Shown piece after piece: positions 28,104 through 44,000 of a stretch of 64,000 bases of DNA (position 1 is the first letter of the stretch; each line of letters begins with the position of its first letter). Both the position numbers and the translations under genes were made by a program. The notes below the pieces were generated by a model that was not told where the DNA came from, made no database searches, and worked only from the letters and a program-made list of their open reading frames with translations. This DNA comes from Echinicola arenosa (GTDB lineage Bacteria > Bacteroidota > Bacteroidia > Cytophagales > Cyclobacteriaceae), in the NCBI RefSeq assembly GCF_014841125.1, contig NZ_JACYTQ010000007.1, positions 203,257 to 267,256 of the forward strand, given 5' to 3'.

Positions 28104-28856
28104 CTACAACTTCTTTTTTAACTTCATAAACTCCTGTTCCAAAAAAGCTAACTTTTCTTCGATTTCTACATTACTTTCAAGGGCTTTTTTGGCAAAGGTG
28201 AATTTGATGAGCCACAGTTCTTTAATCTCAGATAAGTTGAGGTATAAATCATCTATATTTCTATTGGCTGCCCTTAAAGTAACTGTGTTGCCAGAAAGAA
28301 AAAATTTCCTTAAGACCAATTGACTACTAGTGACAATCAGAACCAATTCGCCATTTTCTATTTTATGATAATCTTCATGATCAACGAACTCACCTAGGAC
28401 CATGTCTTTTGGTAGCAAACCTTTATCATGGTTGGTCATCTCAAGATTGGAAATAATATACCCTCGATATCTTTTGGTATCAGTAATGGGAACTTGGATG
28501 ACAGGCAAATCTTCGATGAAGTGCGGTTTGTCATGGAATTTGATATAATCTACTTCATTGTTGGAGGTGATGCAAGGGATTTTTGGGAAGCTGTCCTTTT
28601 GATTGATTCCGTGCAAGGTGAGGTCCCCTTTGAATTTCAGTAGTTTGTTGACGGTAAGCTCAGTAGTCAATAGATCATCAATAGATATGCTAAAGTAATT
28701 AGCAATTTTGATGATTGTTTCTAATTTTGGTTCGCTTCTACCTTCTTCATATGCACCCAAAGTGCCTCTTTTTAATTCGAAAAGCTCAGCGAAAGCTTGT
28801 TGGCTAAGCTTTTTAACATTTCTGATTTTCCTAATATTTTTACCAAAATTTGACAT
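28104..28856 (-). CDS. XRE-family HTH regulator with C-terminal LexA/S24-like (or cI-like) domain; putative repressor of the divergent psp-flotillin operon
   Basis: N-terminal HTH IRKIRNVKKLSQQAFAELFELKRGTLGAYEEGRSEPKLETIIKIANYFSISIDDL. ~250 aa with a beta-rich C-terminal half, divergent from the 29118-33044 operon. The catalytic Ser/Lys dyad was not confidently identified. Confidence 0.55.
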   Translation of the reverse strand: MSNFGKNIRKIRNVKKLSQQAFAELFELKRGTLGAYEEGRSEPKLETIIKIANYFSISIDDLLTTELTVNKLLKFKGDLTLHGINQKDSFPKIPCITSNNEVDYIKFHDKPHFIEDLPVIQVPITDTKRYRGYIISNLEMTNHDKGLLPKDMVLGEFVDHEDYHKIENGELVLIVTSSQLVLRKFFLSGNTVTLRAANRNIDDLYLNLSEIKELWLIKFTFAKKALESNVEIEEKLAFLEQEFMKLKKKL

Positions 28857-29117: not shown

Positions 29118-29513
29118 ATGAAAGATCACTTTCAGATAACAAAAGACTTTTTACTTGAACTTAATTTTGATGTTGTCTTCGAAAATAAGGATGAAGGAAT
29201 ATTGATGGTTCATAAGGAGAATTTTGGTATAAAGAATTTAATCCTCGGTGTAGCCCCACCAATTTTAATAATGGAGCAGTTTCTTTTTAAGATCAATAAT
29301 CAATCTGATAAGATATATAAGAACCTACTCCAAAAGAACAGGGATATCATTCATGGTGCTTTTGTTTTAGATGAGTCAGGTAAAAAGGTGATTTTCAGGG
29401 ATACATTGCAGATTGAAAATATGGACCTAAATGAACTTGAAGGGTCACTGAATAGCCTGAGTTTATTAATGAGTGAGTATTCAGAACAAATAATTGAGTT
29501 TTCTAAATATTAA
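29118..29513 (+). CDS. small cytoplasmic protein, possibly YbjN/T3SS-chaperone-like fold; first gene of the psp-flotillin operon
   Basis: 131 aa, acidic, mixed alpha/beta composition, 12 nt upstream of pspA. The family assignment is a guess from size and composition. Confidence 0.45.
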   Translation: MKDHFQITKDFLLELNFDVVFENKDEGILMVHKENFGIKNLILGVAPPILIMEQFLFKINNQSDKIYKNLLQKNRDIIHGAFVLDESGKKVIFRDTLQIENMDLNELEGSLNSLSLLMSEYSEQIIEFSKY

Positions 29514-29524
29514 ATATTAATGAC

Positions 29525-30241
29525 ATGAACATTTTTAAACGATTATTCAAAATAGGAGAGGCTGAAGCCAATGCAGCCATTGATAAAATGGAAGACCCTA
29601 TCAAGTTGACGGAGCAAGGAATCCGTGATCTTAGAGAGGACCTCAACAAAAATATGGAAGCCCTTGCCCAAGTAAAAGCTTTGGCCATTAGAGCAAAGAA
29701 TGACCAAGAGGGCTATATAGAAAAGAAAGAGGATTATCATAATAAGGCGGTGCTGATCCTGAAAAAGGTTCAACAGGGAAGTATGGATGCGACAGAGGGA
29801 GACAGACTTGCTAAAGAAGCGTTGTTGAAGAAAGAGGAGATGCAGCAGCATGTTGCCAGGACTGAAGGGGAGGCGAACAAATTCAATGACAATGTGGCTC
29901 AACTTGAAAAAAACATTCAAACTATCAAATCCAGTATTGGCAATTGGGAGAATGAGCTCAGTACTTTGAAGGCAAGGGTAAAGGTCAGTAAGGCCACCAA
30001 AAGTCTGAATAAGCAAATGGCCGAAATTGATAGCAGCAGCACTGTTTCCATGCTTGAAAGAATGAAGGAAAAGGTTGCCCAAGAAGAAGCGCTGGCTGAA
30101 GCTTATGGTGAAATTGCTGGAGCTTCTAAAACGATCGATGATGAATTGGAAAAAGCCGCAAGTTCTTCAGAAGTCAAAGCAGAGGATGACTTGAGCAAAC
30201 TTAAAAATCAATTGGGGTTTAACGAAGATAAAAATACCTGA
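29525..30241 (+). CDS. pspA: PspA/IM30/Vipp1-family protein (bacterial ESCRT-III superfamily)
   Basis: MNIFKRLFKIGEAEANAAIDKMEDPIKLTEQGIRDLREDLNKNMEALAQVKA... aligns by eye with the E. coli PspA N-terminus ([40 protein letters not shown]...). 238 aa, all-helical. Confidence 0.85.
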   Translation: MNIFKRLFKIGEAEANAAIDKMEDPIKLTEQGIRDLREDLNKNMEALAQVKALAIRAKNDQEGYIEKKEDYHNKAVLILKKVQQGSMDATEGDRLAKEALLKKEEMQQHVARTEGEANKFNDNVAQLEKNIQTIKSSIGNWENELSTLKARVKVSKATKSLNKQMAEIDSSSTVSMLERMKEKVAQEEALAEAYGEIAGASKTIDDELEKAASSSEVKAEDDLSKLKNQLGFNEDKNT

Positions 30242-30243
30242 TC

Positions 30244-30942
30244 TTGGATAGTTTAATTAACATCATCTTTTCTCAGGTCAACATAACCTTGACCATTTTC
30301 CTTATTTTACTGGTAGTGTATTGGTTATTGACCATGATCAGTGGAATTGACTTTGAACTGGACGTAGAGATCGATGTGGATGTTGATACTGGAGTGGATG
30401 TAGATGGAGGAGGCACTGAGTTTCAGGATATATCCAATGCAGAAATCCATAAAGACGAGGTGGTAGGCAAACGGATACAACCACTAAAATGGTGGCAGAT
30501 CTTTTTGATTTACTTCAATTTTGTGGGTTTGCCTTTTATGTTTACCCTTACCTGTTTTGTGTTTATCTGGTGGTTCAGTACCGTCCTGCTTACTGCAGTC
30601 ACAGTATCTTATGAGAATGTATTTGGTTTTGGGATTCTGATCGTGACCTTTTTTGCTTCATTGATCCTTACCAAAATCTTTACGACTCCATTCAAAGGAT
30701 TCTTTAAACACTTGAACAAGGATGGGGACAAGGCCAATGACTTTATAGGAAGACAAGGAATATTGCTTTCTTCCATATCAGGAAATAAAATGGGAAATGC
30801 AGAAGTTCATATCAATGGAGATTCGATGTCCATTTATGTCAAATCATTGAATGGAGATGCATTGAATTATCAAGACAGAATACTAATTATCAAGCAATCT
30901 GCTGACAAAAACTATTTTTTAGTTCAATCATATAACGACTAA
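30244..30942 (+). CDS. NfeD-like membrane protein (YqiJ/YuaF/YdjH-like) with acidic repeat linker and C-terminal OB-fold
   Basis: N-terminal TM helix, an acidic DFELDVEIDVDVDTGVDVDGGG tract, two or three more TM helices, and a C-terminal beta-rich domain (GRQGILLSSISGNKMGNAEVHINGDSMSIYVKSL) resembling the NfeD OB domain. Sits 3 nt after pspA and 15 nt before the flotillin gene. Confidence 0.55.
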   Translation: MDSLINIIFSQVNITLTIFLILLVVYWLLTMISGIDFELDVEIDVDVDTGVDVDGGGTEFQDISNAEIHKDEVVGKRIQPLKWWQIFLIYFNFVGLPFMFTLTCFVFIWWFSTVLLTAVTVSYENVFGFGILIVTFFASLILTKIFTTPFKGFFKHLNKDGDKANDFIGRQGILLSSISGNKMGNAEVHINGDSMSIYVKSLNGDALNYQDRILIIKQSADKNYFLVQSYND

Positions 30943-30956
30943 ACTATTTTATCAAA

Positions 30957-33044
30957 ATGAATCATTTAATACCAATTATCGGGATTGGATTAGGGGGAGT
31001 ATTGTTCCTAATCGTAGTATATTTCATCATTATAGCGATGTTTTATCGGAAGGTTCCACAAGGCCGGGCAATTATTAGAACTGGTTTTGGCGGGACTAAG
31101 GTGGCCACTGACAAGGGGCTCTATGTGATACCTGTTTTCCATAAGGTGGAGATCATGGATATTTCAGTCAAAAAGATCCAAATTGAGCGTTTGGCCCATG
31201 AGGGATTGATCTGTAAGGACAATATGCGGGCAGATATCAAGGTAGCTTTCTTTGTTCGGGTAAACAATGATGTGGCCTTTATCAAAAGAGTGGCCCAAAC
31301 AATTGGGGTAGACAGGGCTTCCAGGATTGAAACTTTGGAAGACCTATTCGAAGCGAAGTTTTCTGAAGCACTCAAGACTGTTGGTAAGAAGTTCCAGTTT
31401 ATAGAGCTTTATGAGGCGAGAAGGGAGTTTAGGGATGAAATTGTGGACATCATAGGTACAGATTTGAATGGTTATACCTTGGAGGATTGTGCCATTGACT
31501 TTTTGGAACAAACGCCTATTAGCCATTTAAAACCAGACAACATTCTGGATGCAGAGGGGATCAAGAAAATCACTGAGCTTACAGCTGTTCAAAATATGAA
31601 AGCCAACCTGATTAAACGGGATGAGCAAAAAACCATAAGAAAGCAGGATGTGGAAGCTAGAGAGGCGATTTTGGAATTGGATAAGCAACTTGCTGAAAAA
31701 GAGGAACAACAAAGACGAGAGATTGCGAATATCAAAGCCCGTGAATCTGCTGAGATCAGTAAAGTCGCAGAAGAAGAAAGATTAAAGTCTGAATCGGCAC
31801 GAATTGCTACGGAAGAAAAAGTGAGGGTGGCTGAAGAGAATATGGCCCGTCAGGTGATTGTAGCGGCCAAAAACAAGGAGCGTACAGATGCTGTGGAGAC
31901 AGAAAGAGTGGAAAAAGACAGAATGCTTGAAGCCACAGAGAGAGAGCGTATTGTAACTCTTGCACAAATTGAGAAAGAGAAAGTAGTAGAAGTAGAGAAA
32001 AAGAATATCCAAGATGTGATCAGGGATCGCGTGATGCTAGAAAAAGGAGTGGTTGAAGAGCAGGAGAACATGAAAGATATTCAGGAATTCAAGACTGCCG
32101 AGCGTGAGAAGCAAGTGAGAATTACTATTGCTGAGGCCAATGCGCAAGAAGAATTGATCAAAACGATCAAAGCAGCAGAGGCTCAAAAAGAAGCAGCAAA
32201 ATCCAAAGCGGAAGAAATCAATATTGAGGCGCAAGCTAAGAAAGAAGCCAGTGAAAAAGAAGCAGAAGCTAGGAAGACCATTGCCGATGCCAAAGCGAAG
32301 GAAGAAGCAATTATTGGTATGTCAGAAGCCCAAGTAATGCATGCGAAGGCTGATGCCAGTGAAAGACAAGGTGTCGTAGAAGCGTTGATCATAGAGAAGA
32401 AAGCCAGGGCTGAAGCGGCTGGAATAGAAGCCAAAGCAAATGCAAACCTTAAAGAAGGGGAGTCTGAAGCAGAGGTGATCAAGAAGAAAGCCTTAGCTGA
32501 TGCTGCTGGAATCGAAGAAAAAGCGGCAGCGATGAAGAAGCTGGATGGGGTAGGTAAGGAGCATGAGGAATTCAAGCTTCGTCTGGATAAGGAATTGCAG
32601 GTAGACCTTGCCAATATCAATATTCAAAGAGATATCGCCGATGCCCAAGCGCAGGTGATCAGTGATGCCCTTAAAGCAGCCAAAATTGATATTGTGGGTG
32701 GAGAAACCATGTTCTTTGACCAGATAATTGGACAGATTACCAGAGGAAAAGGTTTTGATAGGCTTGTCCAGAACAGTAGTAATATCCAAGAAATCAAAGA
32801 GTCTATCTTAGGGGATGATTATGCCAAAGGAAACCTTTTGGAAAAAGTAAGGAATTTCTCCAAGAAGTATGGTATTTCTTCCGAAGACTTGAAAAACTTC
32901 ACTATTGCCAATCTATTGATCGAACTCCAGGAGCGGTCAAAGGATAAGGATGAGCAAAGTATGCTTGGCAACCTATTCAATATAGCCAAGAGCTTAGGGC
33001 TTTCTGATCAGAAAATTTCTGGTTTGAATAATAAAATGGTGTAA
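30957..33044 (+). CDS. flotillin/SPFH (band-7) family protein, YqiK/FloT/YdjI-like, with a long E/A/K-rich coiled coil
   Basis: N-terminal TM plus SPFH domain (YRKVPQGRAIIRTGFGGTKVATDKGLYVIPVFHKVEIMDISVKKIQI...), then ~350 aa of EA-repeat coiled coil. 695 aa. Confidence 0.85.
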   Translation: MNHLIPIIGIGLGGVLFLIVVYFIIIAMFYRKVPQGRAIIRTGFGGTKVATDKGLYVIPVFHKVEIMDISVKKIQIERLAHEGLICKDNMRADIKVAFFVRVNNDVAFIKRVAQTIGVDRASRIETLEDLFEAKFSEALKTVGKKFQFIELYEARREFRDEIVDIIGTDLNGYTLEDCAIDFLEQTPISHLKPDNILDAEGIKKITELTAVQNMKANLIKRDEQKTIRKQDVEAREAILELDKQLAEKEEQQRREIANIKARESAEISKVAEEERLKSESARIATEEKVRVAEENMARQVIVAAKNKERTDAVETERVEKDRMLEATERERIVTLAQIEKEKVVEVEKKNIQDVIRDRVMLEKGVVEEQENMKDIQEFKTAEREKQVRITIAEANAQEELIKTIKAAEAQKEAAKSKAEEINIEAQAKKEASEKEAEARKTIADAKAKEEAIIGMSEAQVMHAKADASERQGVVEALIIEKKARAEAAGIEAKANANLKEGESEAEVIKKKALADAAGIEEKAAAMKKLDGVGKEHEEFKLRLDKELQVDLANINIQRDIADAQAQVISDALKAAKIDIVGGETMFFDQIIGQITRGKGFDRLVQNSSNIQEIKESILGDDYAKGNLLEKVRNFSKKYGISSEDLKNFTIANLLIELQERSKDKDEQSMLGNLFNIAKSLGLSDQKISGLNNKMV

Positions 33045-33049
33045 TGCTT

Positions 33050-33085
33050 AAGGCTGCCACCTTTCGGCAGCCTTATTTTTTTTTT
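33050..33085 (+). terminator. rho-independent terminator after the flotillin gene
   Basis: AAGGCTGCC-ACCTTTC-GGCAGCCTT followed by T11. Confidence 0.7.
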
Positions 33086-33144: not shown

Positions 33145-36100
33145 ATGAAGCAAGACGATCAAAGCACGGTAAATAAAGATGCATTGGATGGTGGAACCTA
33201 TGAAATTATCCGTAAAAGGCTGGAAGGTCATAAGGATGATTTACAGATGAGATTACATCAGTTAAATGAATCTCGAAAAGGGGTATTTGGCTCCCTGGAG
33301 ACCAAGTTAATAGCTAATAATAGGGTCAGTACAGAAAATAACTGTGTGGCCAGAGATATTATTTCTTTGGGCAATACTTGTATTTTTGGTTATAATGTCC
33401 ACTTTGGCTTACGAACTGATATTAAGCTATCTGATGTATTTAGTATTTACCAGTTTGATGAGAATAGGTTTGAGCAAGTATCGCTCGGTTTGATTGAAGA
33501 GGATGCCTTTGTAAATGACTTTTCCAACCTCTACAAGTACTATCGGAATACTATTTTTTCCAAGTTTACCATAATAGGCAATTACCTTTATATGGTTTTT
33601 CAGCTTAGTGAGAGCGTCACAGATATCAAAACTTTTAAGTGGTTGATTGCTGATAAGAAATTAAAGTATATCGATAACCGGAGTGATCATGAGTATAAGT
33701 TTCCCAAGCAGCATCAATTCAGTTGGCAAGAAGCCACAAGGGATATGCAGCGGTATGGGAAGCACTCTCATGTTTCCATTATGGATAAGGTTTTTGTGGA
33801 GACCATTGGAGGGGATTTGACCATCAAAATCGAGGACAATACCGATGATGGTATGGGAATTTATTCCGAGCCAGTTGACTACAGAGATCAAACTTTGGAT
33901 GATGGACAAATCAGGTTTGCGGATTTGGGCAATTTGATTGTTTTGGAGATCAAACCATTTCAGGAAAGGGCACGCTATTTTGTGTACAACCATAAAATGC
34001 AGGAAGTCCAAAAAATTGACTCTATAAAAGACGCAGCCGTATTATTGCCAGATGATCAGGGAATCATATTTCCCAATGGATATTATTTGCAAACGGGGGA
34101 ATATCATGTTTTTAATAATGATGTCGACCAACTTAAGTTTGTTGGGGCTGTGGCTTCTCCAAATGGGGAGGATTATCTATATAAGTTTTATGCTTCCGAA
34201 AAGGGAACTTATGTTCTTATGGATTACAATGTCATAGAACAGGAAATAAAAACACCTATTGTTTGTGGTGGTTTTACCATCCTTCCCAATGGGGAATTGT
34301 GTTACTTCAAAGCAGAGGACGAGCAGACAAAGCACCATATGATGCAGATATGGCAAACTTCCTACCTGGAAGGAGATATTTTGCCGTCGGAACATCAAGA
34401 TACTCTTTTGTATAAAATCGGTAACAAGGACATCGTTAAAGCCATGGCCGAATCTCATGAGCTGATCATTCTCCTCAATAAAGAAGATAACTATGATGGC
34501 CTTTATACAGATGTGGCCAAGCTTTCAAAGGATATTTTAGATGCTTACTATTGGCTTCATGAAGTTGAAGCGGGACAATTGAGTAAGCCTTTAAAGGCTA
34601 TTAATGAAGCGGCCAATGCAGCTATCGATGAATTCCAAAAGGTAGTCCAACTCAAAAAGAATGCTGCAGGCAGTACCAAAGAAATCCAAGATAAATCCCA
34701 GACACTTTTTAATAAAATTAAGGGTACTTCATTTAGGAGCATTGATGAATTTGTGGATTTGCTTGGTCAACTGAGATCCATAAGGGGAGAGGTGATAAGT
34801 CTTTATGAGATAAGGTATATAGATGAGTCATTGCTTAGATCCTTGGAGGAAGAAATAGCCCATCATACCAATAAAATTTCAAGAAGGTGTGTGGCGTTTT
34901 TATTGGATGAAAAAGCGCTTCTGCCTTATCATGGCAAAGTCACTGAGAAGCAACAACATCTTGAGCAGGTCACCAAGGTTGTTGAGGCGAAACAGCTGGA
35001 AGAAGAGGTCAATCAGGTGGCGAAAGACTTGGAAATGTTGATTGATATTGTCTCTAACTTGGAGATTGAAGATACTTCACATTCTACTAAAATCATTGAT
35101 AATATTTCACTGATTTTTGCCACTATTAACCAGTTAAAGGCTGCGATTAAGAATAAGGGAAAGCTTCTGGGCAGCAAAGAGGCAAAGGCTGATTTTGCCG
35201 CTCAGTTAAAGCTGATTGACCAGAGCATTATCAATTACTTGGATATTGCTGCTACTCCTGAAAAGTGTGATGAATTCTTGACAAAAGTAGGCGTTCAGCT
35301 GGAAGAGATCGAAGGGAAATTTGCTGATTACGAGGATTTTGTTTCGGATATTATTGAAAAGAGGGAAGAGGTATACAATGCTTTTGAAAGCAAAAAGGGA
35401 GCGATTACCGAAAAGAGACATAAAAAGGCCATAGCTCTTAAATCAGCCTCAGAGCGGATCCTTAAGAGCATTGGAAAAAAAGCAGAAAGCTTAAAGTCTG
35501 CGGATGAAATCAACGGGTATTTTGCCGCAGATATAATGGTGTCCAAATTAAGGGACATTATTGAGCAACTTAGAGAGCTAGATGACAGCGGAAATGCGGA
35601 GGAAATAGAAACATCTCTGAAGACCAGTAAAGAGGATGCGCTTAGAAAGTTAAAAGATAAACTTGATCTCTATGAAGATGGGGAAAATATTATCAAGTTA
35701 GGCAAGCATAAGTTTGGAGTGAACCGTCAAGAGCTGGATTTAACGATAGTTACCAAAGATAAAAATCTTTGCTATCATCTCAGTGGGACTGATTTCTACC
35801 ACGAACTTCATCATGAAGTTTTGGATAAGAGCCAAAAGTACTGGAGCCAGGAGTTCGTATCAGAAAATGAAGAAGTTTATAGGAGTTCCTATTTAGCTTA
35901 TAAGGTATATATGGATAAAGATCCTTTGGAACTAGCCCGATTGGATGTAGCCGAATTATTGAAAGTAATTCAAGAGGAGAGCAGTAGCAACTATTCGGAA
36001 GGTTATGTAAAAGGGGTTCATGATGAAGATGCCGCTGCAATTCTGAAGATGCTTGTACAAAAGCATGAAGAGTTGAAGATATTGACTTATCCATCCACCG

Positions 36101-38013
36101 TCCGGGCCTATGCCCAATTTTTCTGGTTTAGCTTGGAAAAGAATGAGCAAGAGGCTTTAAATCATTCCATTAAAGCTTCTGGTTTAGTCCTGAAGTTTTT
36201 TCCTTCATCGAAGGAATATGACTTTTTGATCGAAGAGTTAGAAGAGTCCATTGCAAAATATGGTGAAGCTTCAGGTCTATTTACAAGCTTTAAAGCCAAT
36301 GCCATTGCGCATTATTTGTTTGATGAACTCCAAAGCGATGATCATTTTGCTCTTAGTAGCAGCGCTGCGAAAATTGTAGAGGGATTCAAGCAGATGCTGG
36401 TTAAGGAAAAAGCCCAGGATCAATTTCACCATAATTTGGAAAAACTGGTTAGCCTTTCGTCAAAAGTGAAGCTTTACAGGCAGTGGTTAAAGGCTTTCGT
36501 AAAGGTAAGTCAAGGTACGGATGACTTAGAGTATATTGATGAAGCCGTTTGTGTTTTGCTCTTGCAGGAAGGCAAAAGAAACCTGATTTCGGCTAGCCCG
36601 TTTGCAAAAATCCAAGGCCTAAAAGGGGAGCATAACACTATCAATCATGGAGAGATGAATTTCAATTACCATGATTTCAGTGCACTTTTGGATCATTTTG
36701 TCAATCAGGAAGTGGTGGCATTTAATGCTTATCGAAAGGCCAAGCATCAAGTAACAGAGGAGCTTAAAGATCAGCTGAAATTGGAGGAGTTTAAGCCTAG
36801 AGTATTGACCTCATTTGTTAGAAATAAACTTATCGATCAAGTTTACTTTCCATTGTTTGGAGAAAATTTGGCCAAACAATTAGGTAGTGTGGGGGATAAT
36901 AAAAGAACGGATAGAATGGGGATGTTGCTCTTAATCTCGCCTCCCGGTTATGGCAAGACTACTCTAATGGAATATATATCCAATCGGTTGGGATTGGTTT
37001 TTATGAAAATCAATGGTCCGGCAATCGGGCATGAAGTTACCTCAGTAGACCCTGCTTCAGCCACCAATTCTGCCGCGAGGGAAGAGTTGAAAAAACTCAA
37101 TCTGGCTTTTGAGATGGGCAATAATGTGATGCTTTATTTGGATGATATCCAGCACTGTAATCCTGAGTTTTTACAAAAATTCATCTCCTTGTCCGATGGT
37201 ACTCGGAAGATTGAAGGGGTTTTTAACGGAAAGCCCAAGACCTATGATCTTAGAGGGAAGAAGTTCTGCGTGATCATGGCTGGAAATCCTTACACGGAAA
37301 GCGGTGAGAAATTCAAGATTCCTGACATGCTGGCAAATAGGGCTGATATCTACAACTTGGGGGATATCATTGGGGATACAGCCAGTTTGTTTAAGCTAAG
37401 TTTGATTGAGAATGCACTTACATCCAATGCTGTTTTGCATCAGCTAAGCAGCAAAAACTTTGAAGATGTCTATACTTTAATCAATAGAGTGGAGAACAAT
37501 GCGGAAAATGGAGAGCTTAAAGGTAATCATACGACACAAGAAGTTCAGGATTATGAAGCTGTACTTAGAAAGGTGTTGAATATCAGGAACACAGTTTTGA
37601 AAGTAAATGAGACTTATATCAAGTCTGCAGGTATGGAAGATGAGTACCGTACAGAACCATCATTTAAGTTGCAGGGCTCTTACCGGGATATGAATAAGCT
37701 GGTGGCCAAAGTGGTGCCGATTATGAATGAAGCAGAGCTAGATGGATTGTTGCTTTCACACTATGAAAATGAGTCTCAGACCTTGACAGCGGCAGCAGAA
37801 GCCAATCTACTAAAATACAAAGAACTGAGAGGAATGCTTAGCTCAGAGGAAGAAGAAAGGTGGAAATCCATCAAAACTACCTTTGCAAAAAACAACAAGT
37901 TAAAAGGCTTTGGGAATAAAAATGAGATGGCCCAAGTGCTTTCTCAAATGATGGCTTTTAGCGAAAATCTAGAAGGAATAAAGGCAGTTCTTCAAAAAGG
38001 CTTTGAAAAGTAA
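33145..38013 (+). CDS. giant (1622 aa) uncharacterised protein with C-terminal MoxR/AAA_5-type ATPase module. An N-terminal globular region and a ~750-aa helical/coiled-coil middle have no recognisable family.
   Basis: Walker A ISPPGYGKTT (nt 36940-36963); Walker B VMLYLDDIQH (37129-37152). Sensor/Arg region CVIMAGNPYTESGEKFKIPDMLANRADIY matches the AAA_5/MoxR pattern NP..E.G...lp.al.nRF. Uninterrupted ORF with a strong terminator after it. Confidence 0.8.
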   Translation: MKQDDQSTVNKDALDGGTYEIIRKRLEGHKDDLQMRLHQLNESRKGVFGSLETKLIANNRVSTENNCVARDIISLGNTCIFGYNVHFGLRTDIKLSDVFSIYQFDENRFEQVSLGLIEEDAFVNDFSNLYKYYRNTIFSKFTIIGNYLYMVFQLSESVTDIKTFKWLIADKKLKYIDNRSDHEYKFPKQHQFSWQEATRDMQRYGKHSHVSIMDKVFVETIGGDLTIKIEDNTDDGMGIYSEPVDYRDQTLDDGQIRFADLGNLIVLEIKPFQERARYFVYNHKMQEVQKIDSIKDAAVLLPDDQGIIFPNGYYLQTGEYHVFNNDVDQLKFVGAVASPNGEDYLYKFYASEKGTYVLMDYNVIEQEIKTPIVCGGFTILPNGELCYFKAEDEQTKHHMMQIWQTSYLEGDILPSEHQDTLLYKIGNKDIVKAMAESHELIILLNKEDNYDGLYTDVAKLSKDILDAYYWLHEVEAGQLSKPLKAINEAANAAIDEFQKVVQLKKNAAGSTKEIQDKSQTLFNKIKGTSFRSIDEFVDLLGQLRSIRGEVISLYEIRYIDESLLRSLEEEIAHHTNKISRRCVAFLLDEKALLPYHGKVTEKQQHLEQVTKVVEAKQLEEEVNQVAKDLEMLIDIVSNLEIEDTSHSTKIIDNISLIFATINQLKAAIKNKGKLLGSKEAKADFAAQLKLIDQSIINYLDIAATPEKCDEFLTKVGVQLEEIEGKFADYEDFVSDIIEKREEVYNAFESKKGAITEKRHKKAIALKSASERILKSIGKKAESLKSADEINGYFAADIMVSKLRDIIEQLRELDDSGNAEEIETSLKTSKEDALRKLKDKLDLYEDGENIIKLGKHKFGVNRQELDLTIVTKDKNLCYHLSGTDFYHELHHEVLDKSQKYWSQEFVSENEEVYRSSYLAYKVYMDKDPLELARLDVAELLKVIQEESSSNYSEGYVKGVHDEDAAAILKMLVQKHEELKILTYPSTVRAYAQFFWFSLEKNEQEALNHSIKASGLVLKFFPSSKEYDFLIEELEESIAKYGEASGLFTSFKANAIAHYLFDELQSDDHFALSSSAAKIVEGFKQMLVKEKAQDQFHHNLEKLVSLSSKVKLYRQWLKAFVKVSQGTDDLEYIDEAVCVLLLQEGKRNLISASPFAKIQGLKGEHNTINHGEMNFNYHDFSALLDHFVNQEVVAFNAYRKAKHQVTEELKDQLKLEEFKPRVLTSFVRNKLIDQVYFPLFGENLAKQLGSVGDNKRTDRMGMLLLISPPGYGKTTLMEYISNRLGLVFMKINGPAIGHEVTSVDPASATNSAAREELKKLNLAFEMGNNVMLYLDDIQHCNPEFLQKFISLSDGTRKIEGVFNGKPKTYDLRGKKFCVIMAGNPYTESGEKFKIPDMLANRADIYNLGDIIGDTASLFKLSLIENALTSNAVLHQLSSKNFEDVYTLINRVENNAENGELKGNHTTQEVQDYEAVLRKVLNIRNTVLKVNETYIKSAGMEDEYRTEPSFKLQGSYRDMNKLVAKVVPIMNEAELDGLLLSHYENESQTLTAAAEANLLKYKELRGMLSSEEEERWKSIKTTFAKNNKLKGFGNKNEMAQVLSQMMAFSENLEGIKAVLQKGFEK

Positions 38014-38019
38014 TAAAGT

Positions 38020-38058
38020 AACAGACCTGGGTCAATGCGTAACTTCTGTGTCGCATTG
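38020..38058 (+). terminator. rho-independent terminator after the giant ATPase gene
   Basis: GGTCAATGCG-(12 nt)-CGCATTGACC followed by TTTATT. Confidence 0.7.
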
Positions 38059-38251
38059 ACCTTTATTCTATCCTTCTACTGTTACCACTAGTCTTTAGGA
38101 TACTGCTGAGATACCTACCATTTTAAGCGGAAGAGCATCGACTTTAAAACCTGAATACGGAAGCTGCTAGACGTTAACTATTTATCCCTTATGGGCATTT
38201 TCTTTTTCAACTTACCCTTTCCTTGAGATTAAGAAAATGTAATTGGTTCAT

Positions 38252-39610
38252 TTACTCCTGCGAAATCAATTCTAAGGCCTGCTCATAATCGAGGTCTTTT
38301 TCATCTATTAAATCCTGAATGGAAGCTTTAATAGGGTAGTCTGGTAAAAGTCCCCTGTTGGAAGTGGTTTGCTTTTGCGAAACTGGAAAAAGCAGGTGAA
38401 AGCGAGGTATTCCGATATTGATGGAGGAGTGAGGTAAGCTGATGTATTCTTTGGATCCTGCGGCAAAACCTTCGTACCTCGTCCCCGTTTCTGTACCAAT
38501 GACAATGGCATCTCCATATTCTTTTAGATACCTGGCCAAGGTTGATCCGGCAGAGAATGTTCTGCCATTGACCAAGACATAAATAATTCCTGTAAAAGCA
38601 TGGCTGGACTTTTTCGGGATTTTATAAACGCGCTCTTTACCACTCCAAGAAATGCTTTTCTTCAAAAAAGGATCATTGGTAGTTCCCTTCATAATATAGG
38701 GCACCATATCATCTGCAAATTCGTTCCGTCCTCCAGTATTATCCCTCAGGTCTATTATCAGTGAGTTGATATGATGATTTTCTAAAGAGGTAAAAATCTC
38801 TTGGTAGAAATCCCTTGAGTGAATACCATATTTTTTGATCAGTTGGATATCAAATGATTTTAGCTTGAGTAAGGCATGGCCTTTCTTGAAATGCAGCTCA
38901 TAAAAATCTTTAATACTTTCTTCTTGAGGTTTGGAAGGCAAATTCAACGCTTTATAACTGCTGACCTGCTCTTCTCTGGTCAATGCTTTGATTTTTGTCT
39001 CAAGGATCGGCTCTTTGGGACTGCTTTGGTACTTGATCTGAAAGTGATCCTTCTGATCAATGTAAAAATAGTATATCCAGGGAAAGCTAAGATTGATAAT
39101 TTGGTCAGCATAGGTGATGATTTCTCCATCAGAAGGGGTGGCAAGGCGTAGTCGGTTAAGAATATCTTCAGCGTTCAATCCATTGATCGAAATGATTTTG
39201 TCTCCTTGGTTCATAATAGGTTTTAGGGAGTAATCACGCCAAACATAGAGGTCATTATCTATAACCTTTATAGCTATAGGCAAATACTTGAATTTATTTT
39301 GGGGAATCCCATTATGTACAGTGTCAGACCAATTCCCCAAAGCAAAGTGACCTTCATCGCTTAATGCACAAATCTGGCTGATATAAGTGAAATAAGCATT
39401 CAAGGATATTTCATCTTGATAAATCGCATCAATGATTCTTGTACTTGCTACATGGAAATCAGGTTTGTAAATCTTGAGAGCTGGGTTATATTTTTCAATG
39501 TTGTCTCTCAAAAAAGTGAGGTCCGCAATGGCATCGTTTTTAGAAAGATGCTGAGAAAATGCAAGATGAAAACTTAGTAAGAAGCATATTATTCCCAAAA
39601 GAAATTTCAT
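38252..39610 (-). CDS. S41-family peptidase (C-terminal processing/tail-specific protease-like), secreted
   Basis: Signal peptide MKFLLGIICFLLSFHLAFS at the internal Met (start moved to 39610). Catalytic region GIIYVLVNGRTFSAGSTLARYLK (Ser nucleophile) with Lys downstream. Confidence 0.75.
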   Translation of the reverse strand: MKFLLGIICFLLSFHLAFSQHLSKNDAIADLTFLRDNIEKYNPALKIYKPDFHVASTRIIDAIYQDEISLNAYFTYISQICALSDEGHFALGNWSDTVHNGIPQNKFKYLPIAIKVIDNDLYVWRDYSLKPIMNQGDKIISINGLNAEDILNRLRLATPSDGEIITYADQIINLSFPWIYYFYIDQKDHFQIKYQSSPKEPILETKIKALTREEQVSSYKALNLPSKPQEESIKDFYELHFKKGHALLKLKSFDIQLIKKYGIHSRDFYQEIFTSLENHHINSLIIDLRDNTGGRNEFADDMVPYIMKGTTNDPFLKKSISWSGKERVYKIPKKSSHAFTGIIYVLVNGRTFSAGSTLARYLKEYGDAIVIGTETGTRYEGFAAGSKEYISLPHSSINIGIPRFHLLFPVSQKQTTSNRGLLPDYPIKASIQDLIDEKDLDYEQALELISQE

Positions 39611-39740
39611 TCGCAGGATATTTTGGTAGAGCGTAGTGTTACTTAAACATAGCTTTTGATCTTTTAATATCCAATACCTTATCTCGAAGGGACAAAGAAA
39701 AATCCCGGAATTTTCCGGGATTGGGTTTTTAAGGATATGT

Positions 39741-41291
39741 TTATATTCCTGTTTTGAAATGGCTGTGGTTGGGTTGGCAAAACATGTATCCATGATCAAT
39801 ATAACGACCAGGAGGGTTAGTGGTTAATGGGTTTCGAAGTACATTGATCAATCGGGTATAATCAGCAGGAGGGGTACCGTTTTGAATATCTTGATTTCTG
39901 AGTAAAACTTCATTGTGGAGAATAGTTCCAATGCTACTGGCGAACGTTCCGCAGGCCCCATTTGAAATAGTACTATTTGCATCTGAAGCAGCAAAGCTTG
40001 TGGTGCATTCATAAGGTGCATGGAAGGCTATGTTTTTTGTGGTTACCGTTGCTCTGGCTGCTCTGCCCAAGTTTTCAAGACCGTCTATAATTCTCGGCGT
40101 ACAGCCAGAGTAGCAGGTGATTTCAGTAGTAAACCAAGCACATGTTTTTCTTTTAAGTGCATTGTAATTTCCTGTATGAAATCCATTGCGAAGAACTCCT
40201 GGACCAGCTTGGGCTCCAAACACTCCTGGACAAGGGCTACCATGGCCCCTTACGATTTCCATCACCAGTTCCTTACCAGCTCCAATGGCAAGCCTGTGAG
40301 TGTTGATGGCATTGTTTACAGCAGTATGTTCGTTTCTGTTATGAGTCCTTGCAGCAGTTATGGATGCTTGACTTGGAGAATAAATGGTAAAGCCTCTTAC
40401 AACCGTAGGCGTGGGGATTTCTTTCATATAGGGTGTAATGTGCGTGAGGTTACAGCCCAAGGTAGGCAGTTCATCTGCCATAGGATCTGCATCAAATTCA
40501 AACCAAACTTTTTTGGAATAATCTATGACCAGTGCTTCACAGCCTCCCCCTCTTTGTGGACATTCCAGGGGTGATGGTGGTGTAGGAGGAGTGATTACTA
40601 TACTGCTGTCTTCGACGGCTTCAGTTTCTTTATCTAAATAACCTATGGGCAGATAGAGATGATAATTGTTTTTTAAGCCGACTTTCAGTCTTAAATCAAA
40701 ATATTCCATATCTAAGTCAGGTGGGAGATGGATGTCAAATACCGCTTCGCTTTGGCCAACCTCAATGGGGTATTCTTTATAAGTTGAATAAATAGAGATG
40801 TCCAATTCCTCATAGTTTGGGATAAAAAACTGAAAATGCCCATTTTGTAAATCAAGATAATTGGCTGCTATCCAGAAGTTGGAAAAGGAACAGGAAAAGT
40901 AAGGTTGACTATATAAAGTAAACTCATCACCTTGACTTTTTTCCAGGAAGCTTGCTAGCAGGGAGCGGTCTTCATCATTGATTTCTCCATTGGCATTGAT
41001 GTCCGCAGCGATAGCACAGGGGATTTGATCAATACTTCCAGAATTGAGCATATTATTGATAGTGTTGATGTCGTCGGTATCTACCTTCATATCTTCATTG
41101 ATGTCTCCCATGATAAATAAGGGCGTGAAGTTGGCCGGTAAATTTTTCAAGGCCGTTCCTGGTTCCGAAACAGGAACATGGTTGACGAGCGTTTCTTCAG
41201 AAATAGTGATATTACTTTGCTCTCTTTGGTTTCCTCCTTCGCACGAAAACAGCAGAAGTACTGTTACGAGGTTTGCTATGTAGGATTTCAT
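39741..41291 (-). CDS. lipoprotein with dockerin-like Ca-binding repeats and Cys-rich C-terminal domain, function unknown
   Basis: Lipobox LLFSCEGG. Two D-x-N/D-x-D-G repeats (DINEDMKVDTDDINTINNML / ADINANGEINDEDRSLLASFL) resemble dockerin type I / EF-hand-like pairs. C-terminal ~250 aa is rich in C, G, T and N. Confidence 0.45.
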   Translation of the reverse strand: MKSYIANLVTVLLLFSCEGGNQREQSNITISEETLVNHVPVSEPGTALKNLPANFTPLFIMGDINEDMKVDTDDINTINNMLNSGSIDQIPCAIAADINANGEINDEDRSLLASFLEKSQGDEFTLYSQPYFSCSFSNFWIAANYLDLQNGHFQFFIPNYEELDISIYSTYKEYPIEVGQSEAVFDIHLPPDLDMEYFDLRLKVGLKNNYHLYLPIGYLDKETEAVEDSSIVITPPTPPSPLECPQRGGGCEALVIDYSKKVWFEFDADPMADELPTLGCNLTHITPYMKEIPTPTVVRGFTIYSPSQASITAARTHNRNEHTAVNNAINTHRLAIGAGKELVMEIVRGHGSPCPGVFGAQAGPGVLRNGFHTGNYNALKRKTCAWFTTEITCYSGCTPRIIDGLENLGRAARATVTTKNIAFHAPYECTTSFAASDANSTISNGACGTFASSIGTILHNEVLLRNQDIQNGTPPADYTRLINVLRNPLTTNPPGRYIDHGYMFCQPNHSHFKTGI

Positions 41292-41537: not shown

Positions 41538-44000
41538 TTAAAATTCCTTTTCTCCGAATTCGCTCTTGATGAAGCGTGATTTATTTTTTAACTCATTGAA
41601 GGTAAAGCTAATATTGATCATGATCATATCCACTTCGTAGACATAATTGGTAGTGGTGTAGAATTCATTTTCCCTCCATGTAGTGATTCGCTGCTCATTG
41701 GTATCCAAAAGGCCAAGGTCCATATTTAACCACTGCAAGGTAGTACTCAGCCTGCCATCCAAAAATGTCTTTTTTAAGGTAAGGTTAGGGGAAAAGAACC
41801 TTGAATCCTCACCTTGGGCAGTATTTCTATCAGAAAGATAATTTAAGGTCCACTGTAATTTTAAGGAAGAGGAAAGGTCAAAACTTGTGTTGGCATTGAT
41901 GGAGTAAACCCAGCTTGAAGTGTCAATAGGCCTATCATCAAATGTTCCTTTGATGATATACTGATAGATGTTGCCGCTGGCAAAAATGTTCCACCATTTG
42001 GTCGGGTTGAGCTCTATTCCTGCTTCAAGTCCCAGTGATTTTCCAGTGCCTACATTGGAGTAAATCCTGTTGAGGATAGTGTCATTATAAACTGTATTGA
42101 CTCTATTTACCAGGTTTTGGATATGGCTGTAGTAAGTGGTAGCAAAGAATGAGTTTTTCCCAAAGTCTTTGACCAACCCCAATTCAGTTAAGTCTACAAA
42201 TTCAGGCAAGAGGGTTGGGTCACCTTGCTCCAATGTTTCGGAGTGTTCTCTTTCAGGAAAGGGGTTCATTTTAAAAGTGGTTGTCCTTTGAACTCTTTTA
42301 CTGTAGGCTGCTTTTAATGTTAGGTCCTCATTGAAGGCATACTGTAAAGTGGCTGAAGGGTAAAGTTTGACAAAGTCATAGTAATACGTAGTGTCCACTG
42401 TTCCAGCTTTGTCTTTAAGATCCAATTCCCTATCCATATATTCTAGCCTAAGTCCTGCGGAGTAGCTCCATTTGTCTTTTTCACCAGAGAGCTGCCCATA
42501 GCCAGAATGGATTTGTCTGGTGAGGTCCACGTTGCTTGAAAATTCCGGCACCAATTCATATTCACCTGTTTCATTATTCTTTCTTTCATAGACAAAATCA
42601 CCGGTATGGTTAAGGTTTCTAAACTGATAGCCTGTTTCGAAAGTACCTATGCTCCAAGGTGCTGCCTTATAATCTGTTTGAAACCTCACTCCGTGAAGGG
42701 GGTTGTCATTAGTATTGTATTCGTCCTGGTATACAATGTCAGTATCTGGATAGCCTAGGTTTAGGTTGGTTGTTGGACCACCCAACATGGTATATTCATA
42801 TAAAAAGGAAGAGCTTAAGTTGGCCTTATTTTTAAATGTGTGGCTATAGTCAAAACTTCCTAAGACAAAATCTCCTCTGCGGATTCGAAGGTTCTCATTA
42901 TAGTATTGCATAGAGTAAATGGTTTCCCCATTTACTTCTGCGTGATTGTCATAATAAATAATGTCAGCAGTTCTATCTTTGCTTCTTTTACCGCCATAGA
43001 AACCAAGGCTAAAAGTATTAGACTCATTGGGAGTGTATCCCACCGTAAATCTTCCTGAATAACTTTTCTCATCAAAACTTCTTTCCCCATCTGAAGGGAA
43101 ATAAGTAGTGGTATCTCCATCGATGGTGTAGACATTTCCTTCTCTTCTTCCTGCAAGATCATTTCTTAGATAGCTGGCCCCAAAAGAAATGTCCCAATCG
43201 TTTTTCCGGTGATTGATGGTGAAGTCAGCACCATATCTGACTGCATTTTGCTTATTGTCATAATCCTGAACGCTGGGCAGGCCAATTTTGGTATTGGCTT
43301 GAACAAAGGTGCCGTCAGTTGCTCCTATGGATGTGATGATGTTGATAATCCCTGCTTTTCCCTCTGGATCATATTTTGCCGATGGGGCAGTCACCAATTC
43401 CACATTTTGAATGCTGTTGGCGGGAATCTGGCCTAAGATTAAAGCTGGGTCAGTCTGAACAGGCTTGCCATTGATCATTACCACAAAGCCTGTGGTGCCC
43501 CTTACAGAAATATTTCCACTGGCATCGATAGTCAAAGAAGGGAGGTTTCGCAGAACGTCATTGGCTGTGCCGCCCTGACTGGATTGGAAGCTATTGGCCT
43601 CATAGACCTGTCGGTCTATTTTGTGCATGGTGGTAAAAGCCTTGCCTGTGATTTCTACTTCCTCTAATAGTTGTTGGTTGGGAGAGAGTAAGATAGTTTT
43701 CAAATCCAAGATCTCAGATTTTGCAATCGTTATATTTTCAACAACTGTTTTGTCATAACCCATAAACTGGGCAATCAAGTAATAGTCGCCTTTTTGCTGA
43801 TCTAAGATTTCAAATTGTCCTTCTGCATTGGTTACCGTTCCAGCAACGAGACTACTGTCTTTGGTGGCGTATAAGGCGATGTTGGCATATTCAAGAGGAA
43901 GAGCTTCTTGGGCGTCTTTTAAAGTGCCTTTGATGCCTGTCTGGGCCATGCAAAGCCCGCTTAATAAAAATAGTAATGAGGATAGTATTGTTTTACTCAT
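41538..44000 (-). CDS. TonB-dependent-receptor-like outer-membrane beta-barrel protein with N-terminal carboxypeptidase-regulatory-like domain
   Basis: Signal peptide; the CarbopepD_reg-like N-terminus (GIKGTLKDAQEALPLEYANIALYATKDSSLVAGTVTNAEGQFEI) is a Bacteroidota TBDR hallmark. 820 aa, C-terminal aromatic residue. Confidence 0.7.
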   Translation of the reverse strand: MSKTILSSLLFLLSGLCMAQTGIKGTLKDAQEALPLEYANIALYATKDSSLVAGTVTNAEGQFEILDQQKGDYYLIAQFMGYDKTVVENITIAKSEILDLKTILLSPNQQLLEEVEITGKAFTTMHKIDRQVYEANSFQSSQGGTANDVLRNLPSLTIDASGNISVRGTTGFVVMINGKPVQTDPALILGQIPANSIQNVELVTAPSAKYDPEGKAGIINIITSIGATDGTFVQANTKIGLPSVQDYDNKQNAVRYGADFTINHRKNDWDISFGASYLRNDLAGRREGNVYTIDGDTTTYFPSDGERSFDEKSYSGRFTVGYTPNESNTFSLGFYGGKRSKDRTADIIYYDNHAEVNGETIYSMQYYNENLRIRRGDFVLGSFDYSHTFKNKANLSSSFLYEYTMLGGPTTNLNLGYPDTDIVYQDEYNTNDNPLHGVRFQTDYKAAPWSIGTFETGYQFRNLNHTGDFVYERKNNETGEYELVPEFSSNVDLTRQIHSGYGQLSGEKDKWSYSAGLRLEYMDRELDLKDKAGTVDTTYYYDFVKLYPSATLQYAFNEDLTLKAAYSKRVQRTTTFKMNPFPEREHSETLEQGDPTLLPEFVDLTELGLVKDFGKNSFFATTYYSHIQNLVNRVNTVYNDTILNRIYSNVGTGKSLGLEAGIELNPTKWWNIFASGNIYQYIIKGTFDDRPIDTSSWVYSINANTSFDLSSSLKLQWTLNYLSDRNTAQGEDSRFFSPNLTLKKTFLDGRLSTTLQWLNMDLGLLDTNEQRITTWRENEFYTTTNYVYEVDMIMINISFTFNELKNKSRFIKSEFGEKEF

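Follow-up and report, generated by a model that had tools for sequence, protein, structure and literature searches.

A DUF3686-DUF7902-AAA+ ATPase of Echinicola arenosa closes a conserved YqiJ/flotillin gene module and is a candidate remodeler of flotillin scaffolds

In a 64,000-nucleotide (nt) stretch of the Echinicola arenosa genome (contig NZ_JACYTQ010000007.1, positions 203,257 to 267,256; hereafter the window, to which all coordinates refer unless another sequence is named), the gene at 33145-38013 on the + strand encodes an ATPase of 1622 amino acids (aa). It is the last gene of a conserved module, behind genes for a YqiJ/NfeD-like and a flotillin-like protein. From this gene context, we lean toward the view that the ATPase is an ATP-driven assembly, disassembly, or remodeling factor for the flotillin scaffold, with its action extended to PspA in Bacteroidota. 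The intact AAA+ module, the link to flotillin in approximately 95% of the loci examined across many phyla, and the link to PspA in Bacteroidota make the family the best genomic candidate for the energy source that remodels bacterial flotillin/PspA assemblies. An initial annotation, made from the sequence before any database search, had described a 1622-aa protein at this position, and its gene is indeed a single, unbroken ATG-to-stop frame of 1622 codons. Because its product is 100% identical to the NCBI/UniRef entry “DNA repair ATPase” of Echinicola sp. CAU 1574/E. arenosa, it is neither a chance open reading frame (ORF) nor a frameshifted relic.

The linkage was assessed in 80 fetched loci from Bacteroidota, Planctomycetota, Verrucomicrobiota, Desulfobacterota, and Clostridia, in which ORFs from all six frames were searched by jackhmmer seeded with the Echinicola neighbors. 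Counts were based on the 65 loci, from at least five phyla, that had at least 3.5 kb of upstream sequence, and a gene was counted if it lay upstream on the same strand. A flotillin-like gene was found in 62 of them and a YqiJ-like gene in 61. PspA was upstream in 33, all of them Bacteroidota, and it is this difference in counts that makes the ATPase foremost flotillin-associated. The flotillin and YqiJ genes are its universal partners, while the PspA, CesT, and helix-turn-helix (HTH) genes are a lineage-specific extension in Bacteroidota. All-against-all clustering of the neighbors in 82 loci recovered only flotillin, YqiJ, PspA, CesT, and HTH genes, with no VWA, nuclease, protease, or toxin. 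The initial annotation had noted no VWA partner and no nuclease or other effector motif; no VWA, nuclease, or other conserved partner appeared across these 82 related loci. The annotation had also rightly singled out PspA and flotillin as partners to look at. The YqiJ-like/flotillin/ATPase trio is also present on megaplasmids of Streptomyces, Deinococcus, and Pseudomonas fluorescens (pQBR103).

The protein had been called an orphan of unusual architecture, with AAA_5 as its sole family-level signal; profile searches overturned this description. Pfam DUF3686 (PF12458) covers residues 32-469 over profile positions 1-448 of 448 (E=1.4e-178), DUF7902 (PF25472) covers residues 590-672 (nt 34912-35160, E=5.4e-26), and AAA_5 and AAA both cover residues 1261-1386. 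At least 5488 homologs, full length among the matches listed, were recovered from a set of 5.8 billion proteins. The family spans at least ten phyla, and a relative is encoded in at least 587 species-representative genomes. The best 120 of the at least 5488 homologs are 1615-1654 aa long and 66-85% identical, with 99-100% query coverage. A family-profile search found another 120, of 1633-2044 aa and 40-44% identity, in Acidobacteriota, Myxococcota, Gammaproteobacteria, and others; with 97-100% coverage, these distant homologs are full-length and collinear, at about 1600-2000 aa. DUF3686 alone occurs in 714 clusters at 50% identity, 243 of them with an E of 1e-30 or better, and full-length members invariably carry it at the N-terminus. 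The family motifs SPPGYGKTT, DDIQH, MAGNPYTE..G..F..PDML.NRAD, and LQGSYR are all present in the Echinicola ATPase, and all are invariant or at least 90% conserved in a set of 65 diverse sequences that are 27-48% identical to it. By its sequence, then, it is a member of the DUF3686-DUF7902-AAA+ family, a catalogued protein and not a new kind. Where the initial annotation had looked ahead to a possible full-length match to a characterized family, the family does match over the full length, but it is not a characterized one. The large mechanochemical scaffold that the annotation suggested is too loosely defined an idea. The operon type is likewise on record: Ravi and colleagues listed it as CesT_Tir, PspA, YqiJ-YuaF, Band-7/flotillin, and “Betapropeller+Coiled-coil+AAA-ATPase” (Ravi et al. 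2024 mSystems, PMC11237479, section 19, Table S3) and proposed a chaperone or remodeling role for it.

The database name deserves comment, since NCBI gives “DNA repair ATPase” as the product name and Pfam describes DUF3686 as “ATPase involved in DNA repair”. Taken at face value, it would make the protein an SMC/Rad50-like coiled-coil enzyme that works on DNA. Such a reading can draw on the database names only and on weak similarity to RuvB, which is limited to the P-loop (E about 1e-4 to 5e-3). However, the protein has a single contiguous AAA+ domain at its C-terminus instead of an ABC/SMC head split by a coiled coil, and it gave no SMC or ABC matches. No DNA-binding or nuclease domain was detected, the conserved neighbors are membrane proteins and never repair genes, and no paper was found to support the name. 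We consider a true DNA repair ATPase extremely unlikely; the name, which stands on thousands of entries with no supporting evidence found, is misleading.

The anatomy of the protein was modeled with AlphaFold2 (AF2) as two halves that overlap, with an alignment of 114 sequences for each: residues 1-1010 (predicted local distance difference test, pLDDT, 83.2) and residues 830-1622 (pLDDT 88.4; predicted template modeling score, pTM, 0.76). The gross layout of the initial annotation, in which a beta-rich head is followed by a long helical middle and then, toward the C-terminus, by an AAA_5-like ATPase with a helical tail, was right, and a Kyte-Doolittle scan agreed that there is no transmembrane segment. 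The DUF3686 domain (residues 32-469; 33238..34551, + strand) consists of an N-terminal helix at residues 18-48, which is strongly conserved, and a divergent beta-propeller-like core at residues 54-404. Its beta-rich character was confirmed in the model, where 51% of residues 51-410 are strand at a pLDDT of 85-93, and the head as modeled weakly resembles a beta-propeller. Residues 420-842 (34402..35670, + strand), which include DUF7902, are predicted to be a helical-bundle rod. The initial annotation had a coiled-coil spacer of about 750 aa here; the long helical middle stands, with its first part a spectrin-like helical-bundle rod in the AF2 model, but residues 843-1210 (35671..36774, + strand) are modeled confidently as an alpha/beta globular region, mostly at a pLDDT above 90, and not as a coiled coil.

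This middle region contains a small beta-sheet at residues 849-887 in the AF2 model and is well conserved. The residues D838, G853, E907, G957, H959, and D962 are invariant in the 65 diverse sequences, and its motifs read G-x-H-[KR]-F-x-V-N, SE..VYR.EYLA, and Y.EGY..GVHD.DA, with GVHDEDA at residues 957-963 (nt 36013-36033). No PDB sequence match was found for residues 843-1210, and a Pfam scan of residues 838-1215 alone gave no match at E up to 10. The motif GVHDxDA was considered as a possible HD-phosphohydrolase signature, but this reading was rejected, since no HD domain matched and the spacing at which a metal-binding His should lie upstream holds none. On its conservation, the region could hold an unrecognized active site or a docking site.

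The large subdomain of the AAA+ module spans residues 1228-1404 (36826..37356, + strand), as judged from Pfam AAA_5/AAA, AF2, and Foldseek. Its core carries the Walker A motif SPPGYGKTT and the Walker B motif LYLDDIQH. Of the motifs reported in the initial annotation, GYGKTT is at nt 36946-36963 exactly as claimed and NPYTESGEKFKIPDMLANRADIY, the sensor/arginine region, is at nt 37285-37353; LYLDDIQ is also present, but at nt 37132-37152, 3 nt away from the 37129-37149 that had been given. The AF2 model places a pre-sensor-1 beta-hairpin at residues 1355-1368, followed by sensor-1 N1381 and a putative arginine finger, R1399. Across the 65 sequences, G1268, G1270, D1334, H1337, G1380, P1382, and R1399 are invariant and K1271, D1333, and N1381 are at least 90% conserved; the latter three are invariant in the 114-sequence set, as are the other AAA+ residues. 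The lid and C-terminal helical region (residues 1405-1622; 37357..38010, + strand) is helical in AF2 secondary structure, as had been proposed. It contains a putative sensor-2 residue, R1514, in LQGSYR (nt 37672-37689), with extra helices before it; P1505 and R1514 are invariant in the 65 sequences, and the last 40 or so residues of the protein are variable. The approximately 113 residues between R1399 and R1514 probably represent an insertion before sensor 2. PDB searches with the single protein and with the 65-sequence profile returned only P-loop matches of about 35-70 residues (p97, Rix7, NVL, RuvB) at E 1e-3 or weaker, so no domain of the ATPase has a solved relative by sequence. An NCBIfam search of the ATPase gave nothing meaningful.

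The AAA+ clades were reportedly defined by Erzberger and Berger and by Iyer et al., and the classical AAA clade is without a pre-sensor-1 hairpin. In Pfam, AAA_5 ranks first at 33.2 bits (cut-off 22), narrowly above AAA at 32.3 bits. Foldseek against the PDB returned RuvB, ClpA, Lon, CbbQ, NorQ, MCM, and dynein, with E values between about 2e-5 and 2e-4. By target-normalized template modeling score (TM-score), NorQ (0.56) and CbbQ2 (0.49) came out on top, with RuvB at 0.37-0.39. The first half of the module, from the P-loop to beta2-“NGPxxGH”, aligns at the sequence level with RuvB and classical AAA. A MoxR protein, of AAA+ clade 7, would have a pre-sensor-1 beta-hairpin, a helix-2 insert, and a pre-sensor-2 insert; the AF2 model shows a hairpin at residues 1355-1368, extra helices before R1514, and, between beta2 and alpha2, a loop with no hairpin. 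Because of the structural matches and the modeled hairpin, we place the module among the pre-sensor-1-hairpin lineages with MoxR-like features. As modeled, it is a distinct AAA+ lineage, AAA_5/MoxR-like, outside the classical clade of Vps4, p97, and katanin, and not true MoxR.

The MoxR-type label of the initial annotation holds as a resemblance. In favor of a bona fide MoxR-family chaperone, whose VWA/MIDAS partner would be encoded elsewhere in the genome, are AAA_5 as the top Pfam AAA match, NorQ/CbbQ as the best structural matches, and a stretch from sensor 1 to the arginine that is MoxR-like (NP.E..G...P.A..NR). However, AAA_3 did not match the ATPase even at E up to 10, and RuvB and classical AAA give the better alignments to the half of the module from the P-loop to beta2-GPxL. 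A MoxR protein would also have a VWA/MIDAS partner, a Walker B of the form hhhhDE, and a stand-alone size of about 300-500 aa. Here, a VWA gene occurs in none of the 82 neighborhoods, Walker B is DD, and the protein has 1622 aa versus about 300. We find a bona fide MoxR chaperone scarcely credible.

Family membership, domain layout, intact catalytic motifs, and gene linkage are shown by these results. With a remodeling factor as the favored reading, a mechanism can be sketched in which the oligomeric state, the substrate, and the direction of action of the ATPase are what we infer. The flotillin-like protein, held by one transmembrane anchor, and its NfeD-type partner would jointly form an SPFH dome on the cytoplasmic side of the inner membrane, and PspA, a bacterial ESCRT-III protein, would be recruited to the dome site under envelope stress. 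The ATPase would oligomerize via its C-terminal AAA+ module; a ring ATPase fits because the Walker A and B, sensor-1, trans-acting arginine, and sensor-2 residues are conserved. Propeller-like heads on spectrin-like helical rods would then extend outward and dock on the scaffold, and ATP hydrolysis would assemble, reshape, or strip flotillin and/or PspA polymers. The ATPase would thus be a functional analog, though not a homolog, of Vps4 acting on ESCRT-III. A terminator-like hairpin 5' of its gene would probably keep it sub-stoichiometric to the structural proteins.

No energy-driven mechanism for dismantling the SPFH/flotillin cages observed by cryo-electron microscopy is known to us from published work. 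Several published observations provide a setting for such an activity. SPFH proteins are described as building membrane-abutting domes or cages. In B. subtilis, the SPFH protein YdjI is required for PspA localization to the membrane (PMC8581546). A Vps4-like ATPase has been stated to be absent in bacteria and the role of the Band-7 partners of PspA to be undetermined (PMC7619361), while some archaeal Vps4/ESCRT-III loci are found together with SPFH genes (PMC10936438). A bolder form of the proposal, which we put forward only tentatively and think more apt to be wrong than right, is that the family would supply the Vps4 counterpart so far missing from bacteria: a giant AAA+ ring, not homologous to Vps4, with spectrin-like arms that are tipped by propellers and would grip cytoplasmic flotillin domes, and PspA/ESCRT-III polymers where present, and would open, recycle, or reshape them by means of ATP, with residues 843-1210 adding an unrecognized activity. 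If this were true, flotillin cages would gain an energy-driven assembly cycle for the first time.

Several points weigh against a remodeling role. The role is argued wholly by guilt by association, and the flotillin gene is absent from the adjacent position in three of the 65 loci. The proposed mechanism leaves out the middle region, whose invariant H, D, and E residues might belong to an enzymatic or effector domain. Co-transcription of the ATPase gene with the flotillin gene is uncertain, because the terminator-like hairpin lies between them. Threading AAA+ enzymes carry an aromatic pore-loop residue between beta2 and alpha2; in the ATPase, this loop reads NGPAIGHEVTSVDP and is without an aromatic residue, so threading of the Vps4 or Clp type is not evident. 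Walker B is DD and not DE, and in some AAA+ families a DD goes with slow, switch-like hydrolysis. A literature search for DUF3686 found no paper, and hence no experiment on any family member, and searches combining “DNA repair ATPase” with flotillin, or bacterial flotillin with AAA and gene neighborhood, found nothing beyond Ravi et al.

The ATPase could also work at a flotillin dome in other ways. It could be a client-processing unfoldase or chaperone for which the dome is only a platform, as HflK/C is for FtsH, and which extracts, unfolds, or hands over damaged or mis-inserted membrane or sub-membrane proteins in the microdomain enclosed by it, without flotillin or PspA being its targets. 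SPFH cages paired with AAA+ enzymes have a precedent in HflK/C-FtsH and prohibitin/m-AAA protease. Clp and Lon unfoldases are among the Foldseek matches, a CesT/Tir chaperone-fold protein is encoded within the operon, and the linkage counts for flotillin, YqiJ, and PspA would fit equally well. However, the ATPase has no membrane anchor and no aromatic pore loop, and neither a protease domain nor a protease partner was found in the conserved neighborhood of the 82 loci. On balance, an unfoldase is unlikely. The Walker B motif would also suit a nucleotide-gated tether or coat, that is, a static, protocoatomer-like scaffold over the flotillin/PspA patch in which the AAA+ module is an assembly switch and not a motor. 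The spectrin-like rod and the long, low-confidence Foldseek alignments to propeller and alpha-solenoid proteins (IFT-A at a probability of 0.69-0.87; the Vps18 propeller) are consistent with this. However, the TM-scores of these coat-like matches are 0.07-0.08, and in the alignments every catalytic residue, the trans arginine and sensor 2 among them, is either invariant or conserved to at least 90%, which argues for real hydrolysis. A tether or coat of this kind is, in our estimation, quite unlikely.

The operon upstream of the ATPase supplies the identities on which its proposed role as a remodeling factor depends. Four genes precede it on the same strand, 2-14 nt apart. The first (29118..29513, +) encodes a CesT/Tir-like chaperone-fold protein of 131 aa that matches CesT_Tir_1 (PF22550) over the whole profile at E=3e-55; such a gene is upstream in 32 of the 82 loci. 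The second (29525..30241, +) encodes a 238-aa PspA/IM30 protein of the bacterial ESCRT-III superfamily (PspA_IM30, E=2.7e-42). The third (30244..30942, +) encodes a 232-aa membrane protein of YqiJ/YuaF type (NfeD-like), with three transmembrane segments (residues 3-39, 86-123, and 123-150 by hydropathy) and a beta-rich C-terminal domain. The fourth (30957..33044, +) encodes the 695-aa flotillin-like SPFH protein, which has an N-terminal transmembrane segment, an SPFH domain, a long E/A/K-rich coiled coil, and a C-terminal region. Its one transmembrane segment is at residues 1-34 and is followed by YRK, so the bulk of the protein should be cytoplasmic. The antisense “ORFs” inside the flotillin-like gene in many loci are artifacts of its E/A/K-rich repeat composition. 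The fifth gene of the operon, for the DUF3686/DUF7902/AAA+ ATPase, is the one named “DNA repair ATPase” by NCBI (33145..38013, +).

Pfam and PDB searches with the Echinicola flotillin-like and YqiJ-like proteins themselves gave no match, and Band_7 did not match the flotillin-like protein even at E up to 10. We would guess that the HMMER composition/bias filter acts on the long E/A/K-rich region. Both identities were consequently set via orthologs and family profiles. The flotillin-like protein is 83% identical to its ortholog in Christiangramia forsetii, which matches Band_7 at 5.4e-15 (56 bits), and shares 45% identity from end to end with a Streptomyces “flotillin family protein”. Band_7 was matched by seven of 32 members of its family, with no other Pfam match, and the sole PDB match of the family profile was the SPFH protein QmcA (E=1e-3). 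For the YqiJ-like family, 10 of 31 members matched YqiJ_N (best E=4.5e-7), and the sole PDB match of the profile was B. subtilis YuaF (2k14_A, E=0.02). On these profile matches, the assignments of both membrane neighbors by Ravi et al. hold, and both proteins are divergent subfamilies.

Two arrangements in other genomes are recorded here for their own sake. On pQBR103 (P. fluorescens SBW25, NC_009444.1, 86.5-97.6 kb), the trio lies directly 3' of DUF2491, DUF350, DUF1190, and glutathionylspermidine-synthase-family genes, which joins two PspA-associated operon classes kept separate by Ravi et al., the polyamine type and the flotillin/AAA+ type. In loci L005, L006, L007, L018, L023, L035, L057, and L073, the flotillin-like gene is separated from the ATPase gene by an additional 0.7-2.5 kb; clustering among those loci revealed no conserved family in the inserts.

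The Echinicola-type locus presents an uncluttered module of five genes with a dedicated regulator, in marine Bacteroidota that can be cultured, although the Echinicola locus itself adds no new biology to the catalogue of Ravi et al. 2024. Zunongwangia profunda and Christiangramia forsetii carry the same six-gene block between unrelated flanks, and since the flanks vary from one genome to another, it is the block itself that forms the unit. The regulator (28104..28856, - strand) is divergent from the operon and combines a Cro/C1-type HTH (HTH_3, E=4e-12) with an S24-peptidase-like domain (Peptidase_S24, E=4e-4). It is the “cHTH+Protease” of Ravi et al. and is kept at its position in 32 of the 82 loci, every one of which has CesT-PspA. 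Read by eye, it has SNLEM at the LexA/CI catalytic GDSM site, so its catalytic Ser seems to be absent, and it may be a non-cleaving repressor controlled by a ligand or partner. Downstream of the ATPase, on the opposite strand, are genes for an S41 C-terminal-processing-peptidase-like protein (38252-39799, -), a protein with a dockerin-type repeat (39741-41291, -), whose gene overlaps the former by 59 nt, and a CarboxypepD_reg/TonB-dependent outer-membrane receptor (41538-44000, -). Elsewhere the operon is not regularly accompanied by these three genes, which seem to have no connection with it.

A self-contained block with differing flanks, an occasional megaplasmid location, and a divergent Cro/C1-HTH and S24-like regulator are features that could suggest an antiphage or abortive-infection module, one that senses infection or envelope damage and acts on the membrane under the control of a CI/LexA-like repressor. 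Large-ATPase architectures of this kind are also seen in some known defense systems. However, PADLOC (PADLOC-DB 2.0) gave no match for the ATPase, flotillin-like, YqiJ-like, and CesT proteins and only chance-level coiled-coil matches for PspA. Neither a nuclease, protease, nor toxin partner was found in the 82 loci, and a tblastn search of the ATPase against phages found no phage-borne copy. The plasmid matches are megaplasmids, chromids, or mis-labeled chromosomes, and therefore there is no sign of mobility. The stable gene order in at least 587 species genomes is more like that of a housekeeping or stress-response function, and the S24-like domain seems to be without its catalytic Ser. A role in defense is very unlikely.

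Transcription signals add detail to how the unit may be expressed. Between the flotillin stop and the ATPase start there is a strong intrinsic-terminator-like hairpin (33049..33085, +) with a 10-bp stem containing six G-C pairs, followed by T10. A hairpin of other sequence is found at the same place in Zunongwangia (L001, about 9880-9935 of that locus) and Christiangramia (L003, about 9915-9945), and overall in about 18 of 52 loci in which the flotillin-ATPase gap is at least 40 nt; several Flavobacteriia thus keep its position but not its sequence. Its position suggests attenuation or stoichiometry control, and partial termination would probably keep the level of the ATPase below that of the structural proteins; a separate promoter for the ATPase gene is possible. 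A second terminator-like hairpin, GGTCAATGCG...CGCATTGACC followed by TTTATT (38029..38067, +), lies directly 3' of the ATPase stop and marks the end of the unit. A sigma-70 promoter scan was uninformative, with 33 sites versus 28 expected, and the promoter type of Bacteroidota is a different one.

Among known systems, the closest is the operon of Dokdonia donghaensis DSW-1 (ANH61663.1) in Table S3 of Ravi et al. (PMC11237479), which has the same gene order, including the divergent “cHTH+Protease”, and an identical Pfam domain set; nothing substantive is different, and the ATPase orthologs in Dokdonia show 70-71% identity across 99% of the length. Relative to the published label, the refinements offered here are that the head is weakly propeller-like, that the “coiled coil” resolves in the model into a helical-bundle rod and a globular region that is conserved, that the AAA+ module belongs to the pre-sensor-1-hairpin group, and that flotillin and YqiJ, and not PspA, are the universal partners. 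The resemblance to Vps4/CdvC and ESCRT-III lies in an AAA+ ATPase gene that adjoins a gene of the ESCRT-III superfamily (PspA), in the SPFH proteins of some archaeal Vps4 loci (PMC10936438), and in disassembly or remodeling of a membrane-bound polymer as the proposed analogous role. However, homology between Vps4/CdvC and the Echinicola ATPase is limited to the AAA+ fold. A protein of the Vps4/classical AAA clade would have an N-terminal MIT domain, an aromatic pore loop 1, and a second region of homology, and would be without the pre-sensor-1 hairpin. The Echinicola ATPase is about four times larger than Vps4, gave no Pfam match for a MIT domain, has no aromatic pore loop, has a modeled pre-sensor-1 hairpin, and is linked primarily to flotillin and not to PspA.

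The MoxR proteins NorQ, CbbQ, and RavA share with the ATPase the best target-normalized TM-scores (0.49-0.56), the AAA_5 match, a pre-sensor-1 hairpin as modeled in the ATPase, and a similar sequence between sensor 1 and the arginine finger. In contrast to them, the ATPase has an N-terminal extension of about 1200 residues and is five times their size, with Walker B DD, no AAA_3 match, no VWA/MIDAS partner, and a P-loop half that resembles RuvB and classical AAA. The HflK/C-FtsH and prohibitin-m-AAA complexes offer a parallel of a different kind, an SPFH scaffold paired with an AAA+ enzyme at the membrane. Unlike the AAA+ enzymes of these complexes, however, the Echinicola ATPase is cytoplasmic, has neither a transmembrane anchor nor a protease domain, and comes from another AAA+ lineage, and the flotillin dome of Echinicola would face the cytoplasm. 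The Echinicola operon also places an NfeD-type partner with its SPFH protein, as is the case for QmcA-YbbJ and YuaF-FloT.

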